From the NCBI GenBank assembly GCA_026683435.1, contig GCA_026683435.1_4866.1: a stretch of DNA of 64,000 nucleotides. One strand, 5' to 3'. This document shows positions 1,167 to 7,450 of this stretch, piece after piece. Within the stretch, counting starts at the first letter, position 1. The number at the start of each line of letters is the position of its first letter. The DNA is from a phage. Made by a program: the position numbers and the translations under genes. The notes under the pieces were generated by a model. It had not been told where the DNA came from and made no database searches. It saw nothing but the letters and a program-made list of their open reading frames with translations.

Positions 1167-1622
1167 GTTGCTTCCTTCTTACTACTATTGCTGCTTCTAT
1201 TGGTAGTCCACGACATATCCCTCGTGGGTGGGTTCGGTGTGTAACCGAATAAGTTTTTCTGTTCCCAGGGCAACGCACCAGGCTTAATTGATTTAGTTGG
1301 CAAACCAGGAACAGAAAAGGGGTATACAGACTAGGGCGCGAGGTGGCTCTGGATTGATGCGTAAGAAAAACCCAAACGGCCCTGGCCTGTAAGTTGGCCC
1401 GAAGTCACCGTGTCGGAGGACAGCCCATGCAGGTAGGCGGCAATGGACACGGTGACCGCGGAAGTGGTTCGTGTTACCCTTGACCCGTGTGTGGATACGC
1501 GTCTTATTTCGAATGCCTTCGGGATAAGGATAACACAAATAGGGCGAGCAAGTGGCAGGGATTCGAACCGTCGAAATATCCGATTATGAGTCGGGTGTTA
1601 ATTCCTCTAACTTCGCTGCTCT

Positions 1623-1691
1623 TGCTTTGACCGGTCTCGAACCGGCGACCTTCCTCAAAGAGGCTGCTCTACCTACCTGAGCTACAAAGCC
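1623..1691 (-). ncRNA. tRNA-like element, possibly a degenerate or pseudo tRNA
   Basis: Minus-strand sequence has an acceptor stem, a D-arm (GCTC/GAGC) and a good T-arm (GCCGG-TTCGAGA-CCGGT), but the anticodon arm does not fold canonically (CCTC-TTT-GAGG). Confidence 0.3.
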
Positions 1692-2769: not shown

Positions 2770-2845
2770 TGGCTAAATGTGGCGGGGGCACGAGGTTTCG
2801 AACCTCGAACCTTCGGTTTTGGAGACCGGTGCGCTACCAATTGCG
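2770..2845 (-). tRNA. trnW: tRNA-Trp (anticodon CCA)
   Basis: Clean cloverleaf on the minus strand: acceptor GGGGGTA/TGCCCCC, D-arm GCGC-AATTGGTA-GCGC, anticodon loop CTCCAAA, T-arm CGAGG-TTCGAAA-CCTCG, discriminator G, encoded CCA. Confidence 0.85.
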
Positions 2846-2983
2846 CCATACCCCCAGAATCTTTACTCGGGTGCCATACGGATGGGAGGGGACTTCTTGC
2901 GCTGACCAAACAACGTCAAAACCGTATCCCGTAAACCCAACTGCTTTGGCTTATCCTGATTCTTCTTCGGCTTTTGAGACACG

Positions 2984-3454
2984 TTAAATCTCCTGGACTG
3001 GGCCACCCGTGTTGATATCAAACTTTGCAGCGATGCGAACAGCGTCTGCTGAACTCGCCCCTGCTGCCATTGCCCCGATTGCAAACTCGCAACCCGACCC
3101 AACCGCGACCGGTGGTTGCACAACCGCCATCCAGGGAAGTTCATCGTCTTCGTACTGGCCGCCAGTGTACACAACACCTTTGTCCGTAATCGCGATGTAC
3201 TTGAGCGTGATACCTTTGGGGAATCGGTGGTTGGACGTGAGACCGTTGTAACTCGTCAACGCTTCATGAACCGCTTGTACGCCAACCAGTTTTCCAGCGA
3301 CGCCATAAGCCACGATTTGATTACCATCCAAACGCCAGTTATCGCTGGGTTTGGCCATGAAGATTTTCTGCGTGTTCATGTCCAGGCGATAATCGCCTAA
3401 GGTCATCTGGCTGTCAGAAGCCAGGACTTTTCCGTCGAACGCTATCGTCGTCAT
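2984..3454 (-). CDS. HslV-like / proteasome beta-type Ntn-hydrolase peptidase
   Basis: Begins Met-Thr-Thr-Ile (N-terminal Thr nucleophile), has DSQMTLG and VAVGSGCEFA segments resembling HslV GDGQATLG and IAIGSGG; GAGGAAGG RBS; ATG overlaps the upstream stop (ATGA). Confidence 0.6.
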   Translation of the reverse strand: MTTIAFDGKVLASDSQMTLGDYRLDMNTQKIFMAKPSDNWRLDGNQIVAYGVAGKLVGVQAVHEALTSYNGLTSNHRFPKGITLKYIAITDKGVVYTGGQYEDDELPWMAVVQPPVAVGSGCEFAIGAMAAGASSADAVRIAAKFDINTGGPVQEI

Positions 3455-4026
3455 TGGGTCACCTTCCTCGGTGTGTACTCGAATGTCGTTTCCGTCAGGT
3501 AATCCTGGCGGATCCAAGTCAGCTCCTGGCCTTGCTCACACTTGATGTTCGTAACCAAACCGGCTTCAAGTGGTAGCTCACAGACCGAAACGATTCCGGG
3601 TTTATCACCGTCCCAATATGCGAATGCCGCAGCAGGGGTTGTTGCCCCGACGATGATTCCGGAATCGACGTAGTCTTCGGTAGCGGCGTCGCTGTACACC
3701 AGGTACAGTTTGAGCGTCGAAGGTTGTTTAACCTGAAATCCGAAATACGTCCCGGTGTTGCCTGAGGGAAATTCCCAGGAATGTCTGGCAGGTTCGGAAA
3801 CAAACTCCAAACCGGGATGGGAGTAATCTTCCCATCGGCCCATCTTCAGGACTACGCCTGCAGCGACATCCGTTGCGGCAACTGGACCGTCGTAGCAGCA
3901 CGCAACCGCTGGACGCTCTGCGCTAACCGGCCAGAAGGATTTGGCCTGCTCCTCGTTTTCGGCTAAGACAACCAAAACCGATTCTGGTACCTCGTTCCGG
4001 TAAAACCCGATGCGATACAAGTTCAT
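3451..4026 (-). CDS. hypothetical protein (191 aa), translationally coupled to the HslV-like gene
   Basis: Long ORF; its stop overlaps the downstream start. Confidence 0.55.
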   Translation of the reverse strand: MNLYRIGFYRNEVPESVLVVLAENEEQAKSFWPVSAERPAVACCYDGPVAATDVAAGVVLKMGRWEDYSHPGLEFVSEPARHSWEFPSGNTGTYFGFQVKQPSTLKLYLVYSDAATEDYVDSGIIVGATTPAAAFAYWDGDKPGIVSVCELPLEAGLVTNIKCEQGQELTWIRQDYLTETTFEYTPRKVTQ

Positions 4027-4933
4027 GGTTTAATTCTCCGTTTGGTTTATCATACCTCACGCAGAATCTGTAAATTTTAATCAGCCAGGTACTGGCGTTT
4101 CACAACGGGAGTACCCACCCCTCTCGTCTGTTCCGAGCCGTCAAGATCCGATCACCCCACTTTGGAGTTATCCCCCAAGTCTGCGGTTCTACACGCAGAC
4201 CCCTTTTCGACGCAACGCCGAATTCGAATCAGTTTTGGCCCGACGCCAGAGCGGAATCAGCGATAACTATCGGAGGTAAGTTCAACGACGTCTCTCCGCT
4301 GCCCAGTCCTCTGGCGCTGCCACGGTCAACTCGGATTTTGTCATGGGTGAGCAGTCGACTTTCTCGACACTCTCGCAAACCGAACTACGCCCGACGTAGC
4401 ACCGTCGGCAGGTCGGTTATTTACCGAGTACCTGAATGGGTGGTGATTGTCGGAATCCCCGCCGACGCTCACCGGTTCTGTTCCACGGCGAAAGTTTTCC
4501 AGAACATAATAAATCACGCAGTGTTAGATTGCGCTTTGTCGAAGACACCACGGTAGGTATTTTCGAAAAAGCGTCCTGGGTAACAATCCCAGGACTTGGA
4601 GCCCTAGCGTGCAGGGTTTAAAAGTGATTGGACCATTGGCGCGGTCAATCGCTATTCGCATATAACAACAAACTCACGTAATCAAAAAATTACCGGCTCG
4701 AGGCGTAGGCGTCCAGGAGCCGGTGAGTCACACAGCAGTGAGTCCCTCTGCGGGGATTTTCGTGGAGCTTGTCGTTGGAATAAAAATCCGTCCCCGGACG
4801 GGTTGGTATTGTGGGTCGACTTGTCAGAGTCTAACGACCAGGGAGGCGACCACCGAAGCTATGGGTTTTTGGACATCGAGTGGTGGTCTGAACACACGAT
4901 AGGGAAACCACGTAAAAAATACACGGGGTACCC

Positions 4934-5177
4934 GATCTCGGTCTTCCGTCCGATCACGATCTCTTAATAAGGATCACGCGCGCGCCCGCACGCGTTTTAA
5001 GATCTTAATATATTAATATATTTATTTATATAAATAATTATAATAATTAAATATAATACCTAAAGGTATTATTATATTTAATATTATTATATATTTTAAA
5101 AGATCCTGGAGGATACGGGTGCGCGCACGCGCACGCGTATAAGGAAAGGGTCTTCGACCCGATCCACAGGATCGATC
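4934..5177. other. GATC (Dam-site) cluster: 9 GATC in about 244 bp
   Basis: Counted directly: GATC at 4934, 4952, 4958, 4972, 5001, 5102, 5161, 5170, 5174. Confidence 0.7.
4973..5139. repeat. ~100-bp nearly pure AT palindromic core (centre near 5059-5068) flanked by alternating-CG tracts; candidate DNA unwinding element / origin
   Basis: Left flank cacgcgcgcgcccgcacgcg, right flank gtgcgcgcacgcgcacgcg; AT core with imperfect inverted symmetry around acctaaaggt. Confidence 0.6.
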
Positions 5178-5232
5178 TAAAAAACAATCTAAGTGATTGT
5201 TTTAAAAAGAAATTTTGAGAATTAGATTAAAT

Positions 5233-5252
5233 TATCCCCTAAGGGGGATTTT
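5233..5252 (+). terminator. hairpin atcccct-a-agggggat followed by TTTTAG
   Basis: Inverted repeat plus short T-run read directly. Confidence 0.35.
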
Positions 5253-5740
5253 AGAGTGAGTTAAACAACCCAAAGAACTCGTAAGTAACCGACAGTGTGT
5301 GTCGGTTACAGAACGATCCAGTTTTCACCCAGACATGGCACGAAGTGCTACCCAACGTGTGATCGTCGTCGCCGGCCGCGACCGTTGTCCCGGAACCGAA
5401 ACGGGAATGGCTCTCTCGCGCTCTCAGCGGCCCGCTGGCGCGATTTTCCGGTATAGGGAACCCAAGTGTACCGGGTCTGAGTTAAATCTCGTTCTAGCGC
5501 TTTCTAGAGCGTTTTTAATAACTGGTTAAAAAACATACAATCCTGAATCCCCATTCCCTGAATTTCCTCGCTCCGACAAAAATAAATTCTCTGTCTCGAT
5601 ACATAACCCCCTCTAAAACGCACGTAACCGACCCTAGAAAACGATAAACTGCCAAAAACGAGCTACCCTACGTCGATACCACCTAATCGTTTTCTGATGC
5701 TTCCCAGACCCCTTTAACCGGTTGGTTAAAAAGTAACCAA

Positions 5741-5789
5741 AAAAATAAAAAAAAAATAAGATTGGCGTACTCCCCGAAGAGAGTACGCC
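5741..5789 (-). terminator. intrinsic terminator: hairpin ggcgtactc-cccgaaga-gagtacgcc plus T-run on minus strand
   Basis: Directly downstream of the minus-strand gene ending at 5797; plus-strand A-run 5741-5760. Confidence 0.6.
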
Positions 5790-5796
5790 TAGTGAC

Positions 5797-6306
5797 TTAA
5801 CACTTGATGGTGTAGCCATCAAGGCCAAGGTGTACTGGTTTTATCCATAACCCTGGCTCCCCGAAAATATTCAGGTCGTAAGTTTGGTAATGCATGATCT
5901 TTGCAGGAACATGCACACCCATGCTTTGCAGAAATTCCCAGACGGCGACGTAGCGTTCACGAGTGATGAACATTAGCCCGGAGTCGAACCCGGAACCGAT
6001 GTCTAGGAAATTACCAAGAGAACTGTCAAAACTTGACACCCCATCTTGAGTAAGTGCGACCAACCCTTTAGTTAAATCTCTGTGGTTGTCAATGAAGTTA
6101 CAGAGATCTACGATGGTTATTTGACCGTAAATACGACGGAGGACGGCAGCAACAGCCAAAATCTCGCTGGTATTTCCGTAGTCACCTAAAGGGTTATGGT
6201 CCATCATCGCAGTAATTATGCTTGTGTCGCAGAGGTCGATTAACCGCTGGTCGTGTACCGCCAGGTTAAGACCTTGCCCCACCTGCACGGTTGGCGCAGT
6301 AAACAT
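5797..6306 (-). CDS. hypothetical protein (169 aa)
   Basis: ORF; strong AAGGAG RBS before ATG at 6306 (ORF track began at an upstream in-frame Met). Confidence 0.55.
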   Translation of the reverse strand: MFTAPTVQVGQGLNLAVHDQRLIDLCDTSIITAMMDHNPLGDYGNTSEILAVAAVLRRIYGQITIVDLCNFIDNHRDLTKGLVALTQDGVSSFDSSLGNFLDIGSGFDSGLMFITRERYVAVWEFLQSMGVHVPAKIMHYQTYDLNIFGEPGLWIKPVHLGLDGYTIKC

Positions 6307-6316
6307 AGGAGGCTCC

Positions 6317-7450
6317 TTACGTTTTGACTGACTGTGAAGGTAATCTGGCATCGTACATTAAAAAGATTTCCAGCAGGCTCATACCCGTCGCGTAAAAGAT
6401 TTGGTCTGTGATGACACTCACTAACGCATCTGGGTCAATCGCATCTACTGCGAAATCGCTGTCGAACTGCCAGAACTCGACGTCATCCCCCTTTTCAAAC
6501 GTCGCGGCATACAATCCAGGTTTCACACCACGCCGGAACGAAAAGAGTTTTGCGTCAGACTCAGTGTCCTTACCATAAATTTCCCCGTCGGTCCGTGTGA
6601 TCGCTGCGCGTTTACACCGAGTTACCGTAAGGAGCGCACGGTTTGCAGATGCTTGCGATTTAAACGGATAGGGGCCATCGTATGTCGGGACATTCTGGTC
6701 GCCTAAGGCATCAAGTGCCTTACTCCGATAGACTACCGGAGACTTAAAATTACACAGTCGATTCCCTTCGGTAAACATTGTGTATTCGACCTTAACGTCG
6801 GTACCGACGAGGTCAGCAGGGGACACTTTGTAGTGTGCTAACTGTCCCTGCACGCGGCGAGAGAGCATCGATGCCAGGAAGGTATGGTTGCCCTGTGTAC
6901 GCAAGACATAACCGAACTCTGTGCAGTCGACGATACGAGCGTCCATACGTCGTACAGGCTCCAGCCGGTAAGTCACATCATTCGCTTCGATAAGAAACTG
7001 ACTGATGCTAACATCGCGAGATCGATGTTTGATTGCTTCAAACACTTCACCCGCTTCCAGAATAGCTGGTTCAATTACATTGACCTGGAATGGGAGGGGT
7101 TTCGTCGGCCGTTGACCCATTGTTGTCACTGTCATCGAACGTAGCCACGGATCGTCCTCGCTAGGGTCATTGGAAAGCCAATGTGTTAACCAGCGAGAAA
7201 GGTTCTGAGGAATCGTTGCGGTTGAATATAAAATCACGGTACCCATTATGCCTGCATCGGCCAGCAAGCGCGCGAGTACCGTGTTCATCGAATCGTATTT
7301 GCCATTTCGAAGAATAGGTAATCCCCCGACCTGGACCATTTCGCAGATGACGCCGTGCGGCAGCACCCACATCTTCACTTGTTGGGCAGAATGTATCTGC
7401 CCCGTGCGTAGCTTTTCTTGCCACGCGTGCTTACGTTCATAGTTCATCAT
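6317..7450 (-). CDS. hypothetical protein (377 aa)
   Basis: Long ORF; AAGGAG RBS before ATG at 7450. Confidence 0.6.
   Translation of the reverse strand: MMNYERKHAWQEKLRTGQIHSAQQVKMWVLPHGVICEMVQVGGLPILRNGKYDSMNTVLARLLADAGIMGTVILYSTATIPQNLSRWLTHWLSNDPSEDDPWLRSMTVTTMGQRPTKPLPFQVNVIEPAILEAGEVFEAIKHRSRDVSISQFLIEANDVTYRLEPVRRMDARIVDCTEFGYVLRTQGNHTFLASMLSRRVQGQLAHYKVSPADLVGTDVKVEYTMFTEGNRLCNFKSPVVYRSKALDALGDQNVPTYDGPYPFKSQASANRALLTVTRCKRAAITRTDGEIYGKDTESDAKLFSFRRGVKPGLYAATFEKGDDVEFWQFDSDFAVDAIDPDALVSVITDQIFYATGMSLLEIFLMYDARLPSQSVKT

Follow-up and report, generated by a model that had tools for sequence, protein, structure and literature searches.

A conserved non-coding island of SPN3US-like jumbo phages combines a predicted structured RNA domain with an AT-rich DNA element

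Introduction

In its tRNA gene region, phage T4 encodes two small stable RNAs of about 120-140 nt (species 1 and 2, rnaC/rnaD), which are processed from a common precursor, and the pRNA of phi29, an untranslated structured phage RNA of about 120-170 nt, is encoded near the genome end and the packaging genes. In the ColE1 RNA II system and at the R-loop origins oriF and oriG of T4, an AT-rich unwinding element is accompanied by a structured transcript. GOLLD and ROOL are large ornate phage RNAs found near tRNA islands; in GOLLD the 3' region is conserved and the 5' region varies (PMC12286853). Here we analyse an island poor in open reading frames (ORFs) at positions 4027-5796 of a 64,000-nt stretch of phage DNA (NCBI GenBank assembly GCA_026683435.1, contig GCA_026683435.1_4866.1; hereafter the window), which comes from a Seoulvirus (SPN3US-like) jumbo phage, together with a predicted RNA domain of about 250 nt in the left arm of the island, which we call R1.

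GOLLD and ROOL are the closest organizational parallels to R1, which is a member of neither family, because no Rfam model matches it even at E <= 10; its sequence and helices are unrelated to theirs. Like them, R1 is phage-encoded and large, with a predicted elaborate fold and highly conserved unpaired nucleotides. The setting is also similar: tRNA genes follow on the same strand, 1-2 kb further on, with a tRNA-Trp gene (2780-2855, minus strand, detected by ARAGORN) 1.2 kb to the left of the island, and tRNA clusters are found downstream of the island in phages SPAsTU, pEa_SNUABM_29 (an Erwinia phage, hereafter SNU29) and SNU9 and in contig L034. The 3' domain, R1 itself, is universal and the 5' parts are variable, as in GOLLD. 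Unlike GOLLD and ROOL, R1 occurs in Enterobacterales jumbo phages and leads directly into a protein-coding gene. The T4 RNAs resemble R1 in being encoded with tRNA genes in the same direction, but are shorter, and R1 is not expected to be related to them in sequence. The phi29 pRNA is likewise a phage-specific structured RNA near packaging genes (here the gene for the large terminase is located 3.4 kb to the right of the island), but R1 has no similarity to it in sequence or structure, and the phage family is different. HK022 put and other processive-antitermination or leader RNAs share with R1 a structured, gene-upstream position and terminator-like hairpins on the same strand; R1 is much larger, matches no family and has no conserved downstream gene.

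Nucleus-forming jumbo phages separate transcription from translation and have their own RNA polymerases and an unusual replicase. To our knowledge, hardly any of their replication origins, promoters or non-coding RNAs have been mapped, and our literature searches found no paper on the island, or on the origin or transcriptome of the clade that carries it.

Results

A predicted minus-strand RNA domain with covarying helices

In the comparative fold of R1, a closing helix (CCGU/RCGG, together with a GGC/GCC to GGU/ACC change) joins the 5' end to the core. It is followed by a long irregular hairpin whose apical loop reads GAACUUACC, by a hairpin of sequence CGGCG-UUG-CGUCG and two more hairpins, and then by the invariant core and a 3' hairpin in which single pairs occur in four different combinations. 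When the left end of the island is aligned across genera, the arms of the hairpins change together and a block of 30 nt is identical in every lineage. This invariant core occurs once per genome and is the same in all lineages save for a 1-nt insertion in the SPN3US group, which excludes a conserved micro-ORF at this site.

Our primary independent test of the fold used a sequence-only MAFFT alignment of eight genomes, in which RNAalifold predicted 74 pairs, 31 of them compensatory. In this alignment 94.6% of the cells pair, compared with 84.4% in shuffled alignments, and the covariation score is 0.381 against 0.183; none of 500 shuffles reached either value. When the pairing partners were moved by one to three columns, only 3-9 compensatory pairs remained. 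The signal is strand-specific: the same helices have 31 broken cells on the minus strand and 131 on the plus strand, the consensus energy is -72 kcal/mol as against -42 kcal/mol, and G.U pairs account for 105 of the 579 paired cells (18%) on the minus strand. A covariance model of R1, built from the eight-genome alignment, finds exactly one match per genome, at 103-256 bits, always within the island and on the expected strand; in the window it scores 255.8 bits at R1 and has no second match anywhere in the 64 kb. A 22-sequence alignment, which was fitted to this model and is therefore secondary to the eight-genome test, pairs in 93.8% of cells, with compensatory changes at 41 of the 74 pairs and 231 compensatory cells, as compared with 78 +/- 7 in shuffles (0/500) and 13-39 in slid controls. 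The combination of 41 compensatory pairs with a 30-nt invariant core is of the kind that marks ornate phage RNAs.

A selected minus-strand RNA fold therefore very probably exists at this site, and covariation shows the 3' domain with its invariant core to be under strong selection for pairing on the minus strand only. The initial annotation, made from the window alone, had read the island as a possible structured-RNA locus on the strength of its hairpins. Covariation in R1 and in a second helix further upstream bears that reading out, although the best-supported RNA, R1, was not among the elements it picked out.

Conservation of the island and absence of codon constraint

The island lies between two minus-strand genes (3451-4026 and 5797-6351). 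As first noted, it holds no ORF longer than 76 codons: the longest one with a start codon encodes 76 aa (5299-5529, plus strand), and a 160-codon stop-to-stop frame at 4074-4556 (plus strand) has no ATG, its first start codon of any kind lying 88 codons in. Such ORF poverty is indeed unusual, the window having only two long ORF-poor stretches, the island and 1179-2642.

The island is conserved in related phages: at least five lineages have a syntenic gap of 1.1-2.1 kb at the corresponding position, namely Seoulvirus, Erskinevirus, Wellingtonvirus, Machinavirus and an E. coli phage clade that is known from metagenomes. Sixty-three phage records match it, with 94-99% identity in about 30 isolates from Salmonella, Escherichia and Proteus, 71% in SPAsTU, 68% in SNU29 and block-wise similarity in other Erwinia phages. 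Over 1.7 kb, the island of the window shares 67-71% identity with those of SPAsTU and SNU29, whereas the fourfold-degenerate sites of the two neighbouring genes are only 45-66% identical; the island is therefore under purifying selection.

This selection does not have the marks of a protein-coding gene. In comparisons with two diverged relatives, no 150-nt bin shows a 3-nt periodicity of substitutions (all p > 0.2), whereas a neighbouring control gene is strongly periodic (p = 5e-10 and 4e-18), and 33 of 45 and 43 of 50 indels (73-86%) have lengths not divisible by three. Across R1, stops interrupt all three minus-strand frames of the window. Some GenBank records annotate small "hypothetical proteins" in the island, whose position and strand vary between genomes, and several of these are probably spurious. 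We looked for a split or recoded gene, which the initial annotation had named as the outcome that would overturn its reading, and found none; the absent codon periodicity, the frame-breaking indels and a survey of frames led us to reject a hidden or recoded gene as a candidate.

In Derbicusvirus (Cronobacter phage CR5 and Erwinia phage Derbicus; L030-L033) the neighbouring genes are kept and the gap is only 420-550 nt long. The R1 covariance model gives no match in this gap, and the genus is thus a natural "deletion" lineage that is useful for comparison.

Distribution and novelty

Is R1 a member of a described RNA family? The comparison with Rfam that had been proposed for the island was carried out, and no family matches it. 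Over the whole window, a scan at gathering thresholds with 4227 models, a set that should include GOLLD, ROOL, RNase P, transfer-messenger RNA (tmRNA), 6S, group I and II introns and riboswitches, returned two tRNA matches only, both outside the island; an E-value scan of both strands of 3500-6500 gave nothing above noise (E >= 0.5, with scores far under the gathering thresholds). ARAGORN found no tRNA or tmRNA in the island, neither a cloverleaf nor a tRNA-like domain with a tag frame.

We also scanned IMG/VR, JGI metagenomes and a set of one genome per bacterial species with the core pattern. In these three public collections the genuine core matches are confined to jumbo-phage contigs of 220-245 kb or fragments of such phages. 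A contig of a Kapabacteria metagenome-assembled genome (L047) and a metagenome fragment (L059), considered as distant homologues, proved to be chance matches. The contig of a "Bacillota" metagenome-assembled genome is a mis-binned phage of the same clade. Capture of a host RNA was considered and rejected: among 5,426 E. coli genomes, only a jumbo-phage "plasmid" matches the 886-nt left arm. This circular 221,873-bp "plasmid" of a urinary E. coli isolate (L034, NZ_CP173450.1 146804-156872) is a jumbo phage of the clade; it is 97.6% identical to an IMG/VR contig, and its annotation leaves a 2.09-kb island empty. On this comparative evidence R1 is an undescribed, clade-specific structured RNA and would constitute a new phage RNA family.

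Invariant sequence of functional importance is the usual target of homing endonucleases. One of these enzymes, of the HNH type, is encoded by a 634-nt cassette that sits inside R1 in Kwan (L006 1172-1805) and in Wellington, directly 5' of the invariant core; contig L022, 99.6% identical to Kwan/Wellington, lacks it. The cassette replaces about 21 nt, its end recreates a conserved GGUGAUC and the 3' domain stays intact, which suggests that the 3' domain of R1, about 100 nt long, is able to act alone. Only about 125 nt of the insert are non-coding. A group I or II intron around the Kwan HNH ORF was rejected, since no Rfam intron model matches L006 1000-2100. The 5' untranslated part of the Kwan cassette resembles the Rfam int-alpA RNA at 31 bits, under the gathering score of 35.8.

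Hairpins along the two arms

Richness in short stems, the feature on which the island was first singled out, is real. With perfect stems of at least 7 bp and loops of 3-12 nt, 20 hairpin start positions (about 10 distinct hairpins) were counted, against 1.1 +/- 1.4 in dinucleotide shuffles and 0-1 in six coding stretches of equal length, and a terminator scan found 10 terminator-like hairpins where 2.7 +/- 1.8 are expected. The three stems named in the initial annotation (near 4693-4724, 4789-4802 and 5183-5201) are all present in the window and fared differently in relatives. The one near 4693-4724 is conserved with compensatory changes (CCGGCC/GGCCGG, GCCCC/GGGGC, CCCGCUGUG/CACAGCGGG), and the A-run beside it on the plus strand is kept in all genera. 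At the second, relatives have a hairpin and an adjacent A-run of different sequence; near 5183-5201 they have a different hairpin at a shifted position instead.

Between R1 and the centre, the left arm consists of a variable linker and of blocks conserved in all genera (Table 1). The linker directly 5' of R1 is only 0.50 identical even in close relatives and 0.31-0.48 in distant ones, with large indels. In the middle conserved block, a 15-bp helix (4532-4547 with 4557-4573) pairs in 95.6% of cells across 15 genomes and has 30 compensatory cells; shuffles gave 10.1 +/- 2.6, with none of 500 reaching the observed count, and slid controls no more than 8. Read from the plus strand, the U.G pairs of this helix would become mismatches. 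The hairpin at 4566-4595 also covaries, its U-tract is invariant in all genera, and this U-tract doubles as one arm of the 15-bp helix, an attenuator-like layout. Judged by sequence, the elements at 4566-4595, 4684-4724 and 4780-4802 look like intrinsic terminators, with a GC-rich hairpin followed directly by a U-tract; they are conserved across genera, and their stems covary. Plus-strand transcripts for 4400-4960 were considered on the basis of slightly better plus-strand consensus energies among seven Seoulvirus sequences and dropped when the advantage was lost on adding genera. Thirteen of 15 genomes keep the motif UUUA(N)UAUG at about 4505-4514 (minus strand), which is similar to the TATG motif described for the start sites of late promoters in phiKZ (PMC7598289). 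It may be the start of a transcript of about 430 nt that contains R1, which we offer as a lead and not as a finding.

The right arm (5150-5796) is a chain of conserved motifs and hairpins. The stems of the 10-bp hairpin at 5283-5310 are wholly different in five lineages with pairing kept, seven of eight pairs being compensatory, and the pattern is strand-symmetric. Read as a hairpin, the block at 5456-5480 pairs in 93 of 96 cells on the minus strand and 70 of 96 on the plus strand, with no covariation. In the terminator-like hairpin at 5490-5517 the stem sequence is replaced in SPAsTU and SNU29 and the CGTTTTTAAT tail is kept. The motif TGGTTAAAAAGT has its only exact copy in the window at 5723 and near copies (two mismatches) inside the island at 5523 and 4614; we rejected it as a general promoter motif, given the single exact copy and two-mismatch matches no commoner in the window than chance. 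A consensus structure of the right arm from 16 genomes was abandoned because the alignment was too poor. A single-T insertion published as lying "in a non-coding region" of wild-type SPN3US stocks (PMC7411985, Table 1; SPN3US JN641803 position 239933) maps approximately to position 5690 of the window, in the right arm, which fits a non-coding region.

A central AT-rich DNA element

Between the arms lies an element that acts at the level of DNA sequence and not of RNA structure. Its layout is the same in every genus, with GATC-rich borders, a CG clamp on each side and an AT-rich core of 110-240 bp that contains a small palindrome; the AT-rich sequence itself drifts between genera while this architecture holds. 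The window's most AT-rich 100 bp are 5001-5100, and the AT-rich composition is conserved in all genera, as expected of an unwinding element. Nine GATC sites fall within 250 bp, the maximum of the window (mean 0.62; of 2550 segments, only 2 contain 7 or more), and the clustering was found again in seven of eight relatives checked. The initial annotation had mentioned an origin-like element beside the RNA, and these three properties (the 94% A+T core, the GATC cluster and the conserved architecture) speak for it. Its description of the island as GC-balanced holds outside the AT-rich centre only: GC content is 0.51-0.54 on the left and 0.45-0.47 on the right, and falls to 0.37-0.41 around the AT-rich core.

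Folded as DNA, the central element is stable (z = -6.1). A single giant perfect palindrome spanning 4975-5140 was nevertheless rejected, because the CG clamps fold locally and a hairpin arises only from the AT-rich centre; the same CG-clamp/AT-centre symmetry at 4975-5140 produced an artefactual match to the Rfam family MIR530. Most likely the element is a DNA-unwinding site, that is, a replication origin and/or a promoter hub. It resembles an enterobacterial oriC-type origin in its AT-rich unwinding region and GATC cluster, unlike which it has no DnaA-box-like or iteron repeats that we could find. This phage family replicates within a protein shell that excludes most host proteins (PMC13282480), so that the logic of host Dam, SeqA and DnaA may not apply.

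Many GenBank records of the clade begin or end inside the island. The SPN3US record starts at 5209, those of EC001, JN03, Lh1B, SEGD1 and SPFM16/17 at about 5002-5011 and that of Proteus phage 7 at 5072, and for Asesino, Kwan, Huxley, CR5 and Derbicus the record end lies 0-3 kb from the island. The clustering is probably due to convention or to assemblies breaking at the 94% AT element, rather than to the physical ends of the genomes.

Table 1. Features of the island (window coordinates unless a contig is named)
Feature	Position	Strand	Description
R1	4078-4345	-	Conserved multi-helix RNA domain, about 250 nt; predicted with RNAalifold, covariance model and strand controls
Invariant core of R1	4118-4147	-	5'-AUCUUGRCGGCUCGGRA(C)AGACGAGAGGGG-3'; contains the hairpin CUCG-GAAAGA-CGAG
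Linker with ribosome-binding site	4027-4077	-	A/U-rich (GCUGAUUAAAAUUUACAG...), from R1 to the start codon ATG at 4026
Linker 5' of R1	4346-4425	-	Variable
Middle conserved block	4483-4632	-	15-bp covarying helix, motifs CUAACAC and UUUA(N)UAUG, and a preceding GC-rich hairpin; A6 alignment, 15 genomes
Terminator-like hairpin	4566-4595	-	GUCCUGGG...CCCAGGAC, then GCUUUUUCGA; terminator scan
Terminator-like hairpin	4684-4724	-	CCGGCUC...GAGCCGG, then UAAUUUUUU on the minus strand
Terminator-like hairpin	4780-4802	-	CCGUCC-CC-GGACGG, then AUUUUUAUUC on the minus strand; terminator scan
Central DNA-level element	4926-5175		GATC-rich borders, alternating CG clamps (about 4975-4996 and 5113-5140), AT-rich core
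AT-rich core	4997-5105		94% A+T over 5001-5100; small central palindrome TAATACCTAAAGGTATTA; inverted repeats
Hairpin	5232-5249		AUCCCC-UAAG-GGGGAU; in all genera with changed stem (CCGGCC/GGGCCGG, CCAGC/GCUGG)
10-bp hairpin	5283-5310		GUAACCGACA-GUGUG-UGUCGGUUAC
Conserved block	5456-5480	-	GGAACCCAAGUGUACCGGGU (plus-strand reading); in all genera
Terminator-like hairpin with T-run	5490-5517	+	Terminator scan
Motif TGGTTAAAAAGT in small palindrome	5713-5734		Second copy at 5523-5534; in nearly all genera
Intrinsic terminator of the upstream 184-aa gene	5764-5789	-	11-bp stem and long U-tract; compensated hairpin in relatives
ORF over R1, Machinavirus type	L027 2095-2508; L028 2063-2476; L054 1651-2139; L037 8765-9622		Annotated as gp278 in Huxley

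Neighbouring genes

The gene directly downstream of R1 belongs to at least four unrelated families, and R1 is constant. Replacement occurs even within Seoulvirus, where the 191-aa gene of the window (3451-4026, minus strand) is unrelated to the HslV-like gene of SPLA3. The HslV-like gene fills this slot in SPLA3, SaP7 and MET_P1, an allelic replacement in genomes that are otherwise 95-99% identical. A Pfam search of the neighbouring proteins was set aside, as it gave no informative domains. The second ORF-poor stretch of the window, 1179-2642 (1.46 kb), contains a weak tRNA match at 1622-1691 (minus strand; Rfam 37 bits, not reported by ARAGORN), and relatives bear tRNA clusters at the corresponding place; it may hold decayed tRNA genes or further RNAs.

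Discussion

We lean, with somewhat better than even confidence, towards reading the island as a conserved non-coding locus of the SPN3US/Erwinia jumbo-phage clade that joins a minus-strand structured RNA to a central DNA element. R1, the middle helix and the elements of hairpin plus U-tract would form one non-coding transcription unit in the same direction as the flanking genes, starting at or to the left of the AT-rich centre (the AT-rich core and the UUUA(N)UAUG motif near 4505 being candidate starts) and continuing, uninterrupted by a terminator, through the next gene to the tRNA cluster. R1 would then be released, or would act, as a stable folded RNA whose invariant loops might bind a phage or host partner, as a ribonucleoprotein scaffold or a decoy, and would be the organizational counterpart of the large ornate phage RNAs beside tRNA islands. 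What kind of RNA is R1? The variety of its downstream genes disfavours gene-specific regulation and favours an RNA with a function of its own, co-transcribed or processed; that R1 is a processed or trans-acting RNA of the ribonucleoprotein type, as opposed to a purely cis-acting leader, nonetheless seems to us an even bet.

Several observations weigh against this reading. Folded singly, the minus strand of R1 is no more stable than its shuffles (z = -1.0), and the plus strand does better (z = -2.8). Single-sequence energies are unremarkable, the richness of the island in hairpins proves nothing by itself, and the case for RNA structure rests on comparative evidence and not on hairpin counts; we discarded thermodynamic stability as a line of evidence, since it is uninformative and even prefers the wrong strand. 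The right arm aligns poorly across genera and its strand assignment is weak, with some helices favouring the minus strand, which is G/U-rich there and so inflates G.U-rich helices. Genomes of the Machinavirus type retain an open frame of 137-285 aa over R1 on the RNA strand, probably a spurious ORF in sequence of 60% GC, with overprinting as a possibility. Literature searches turned up no transcriptome of the clade, and a de novo motif search identified no promoter (repeated 10-mers, tried as a source of an early-promoter motif, gave terminator tails only). R1 has the appearance of a 5' leader, as no terminator is present in 4027-4077 and the next start codon follows after a linker of 25-55 nt that ends in GGAG in all lineages. 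As for the central element, a repeat search yielded AT-rich low-complexity families and the two CG clamps but no iterons or DnaA boxes, and GC skew tracks gene orientation with no distinct switch at the island, for which reason we set skew aside as uninformative about an origin.

The rival that deserves most attention takes the leader-like appearance at face value. R1 would be purely cis-acting, and the left arm a long structured leader of a downstream operon made up of the variable first gene, the HslV-like gene and the tRNAs, in which the elements of hairpin plus U-tract serve as attenuators and R1, like processive-antitermination or leader RNAs, governs the read-through, processing, stability or export of the transcript. 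In every lineage R1 is co-oriented with the gene that it directly precedes. Three conserved terminator-like elements precede R1 on that strand, one of which has a U-tract that can alternatively pair with a segment downstream of it in the covarying 15-bp helix, and the HslV-like gene and tRNA genes are found downstream in all lineages. A riboswitch or gene-specific leader is, however, expected to precede one consistent gene family, and here R1 stays unchanged while its neighbour is exchanged; no known cis-regulatory family in Rfam matches, the HNH gene of Kwan, which has its own hairpin and T-run, splits the 5' part from the 3' domain, and an invariant core of 30 nt is a feature seen more typically in binding or catalytic sites than in attenuators. 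We consider a purely cis-acting leader possible but doubtful. A protein-coding explanation of the conservation, whether by a hidden, split or recoded gene or by a number of micro-ORFs, could draw on the annotated hypothetical proteins, the Machinavirus frame and the 160-codon plus-strand frame. It is hard to square with the lack of codon periodicity beside a strongly periodic neighbour, the preponderance of frame-breaking indels, the shifting position and strand of the annotated ORFs, the stops in all three minus-strand frames over R1 and the 1-nt indel between lineages in the invariant core, and we regard it as improbable in the extreme.

The AT-rich centre suggests two further possibilities. 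Modelled on ColE1 RNA II or the T4 oriF/oriG origins, the element could be an origin and the flanking transcripts RNase H-processed pre-primer or R-loop RNAs, or origin activators. Like those systems, the island would place a structured transcript by an AT-rich element; RNase H takes part in replication in the wider phage family, the RNase H-clamp protein of Goslar, a related member of the Chimalliviridae, being an essential replicase subunit (PMC13648698). The most AT-rich 100 bp of the window and its densest GATC cluster lie together between GC clamps at the centre in all genera, and transcription of the right arm in the minus sense would yield a G-rich RNA and proceed towards the AT-rich core. 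R1, however, lies about 800 nt from that core and its transcription leads in the opposite direction, we identified no antisense regulator, the repeat search gave no iterons or initiator-binding repeats, skew shows no switch, and literature searches gave no mapped origin for any phage of the clade; an origin-associated role for the RNA is accordingly, in our view, improbable. Alternatively, the minus-strand hairpins could act as single-stranded DNA, in single-strand initiation signals or cruciforms, and not as RNA. The hairpin-rich region adjoins an origin-like element, and folded single-stranded DNA tolerates G.T pairs, so that strand asymmetry alone is no proof of RNA; but the share of G.U pairs in R1 is typical of RNA and would be costly in DNA, a multi-junction fold of 74 pairs with long-range closing helices is unlike known single-strand initiation hairpins, and hairpins are followed by conserved U-tracts on the same strand, which leaves this explanation very unlikely.

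More speculatively, the whole 1.7-kb island might be a single module without phage precedent, a giant multi-domain non-coding RNA built around a DNA-unwinding element and devoted to a process of nucleus-forming jumbo phages. We think this rather unlikely. If it were true, the module could serve RNA-primed or R-loop replication initiation in the phage nucleus, or act as an RNA scaffold or cage for tRNAs or mRNAs, with R1 as its catalytic or protein-binding core.

For annotation, the analysis implies a correction, in that several of the hypothetical proteins called in the island are probably spurious, and the AT-rich core probably offers an explanation for the many genome records of the clade that begin inside the island. 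Antisense-oligomer knock-down has been shown for jumbo phages (PMC12571901); together with the genetic system available for SPN3US, this opens the function of R1 to direct probing. The locus provides a concrete RNA domain, in five lineages that infect Salmonella, Escherichia, Proteus and Erwinia, next to the most origin-like sequence of the region.

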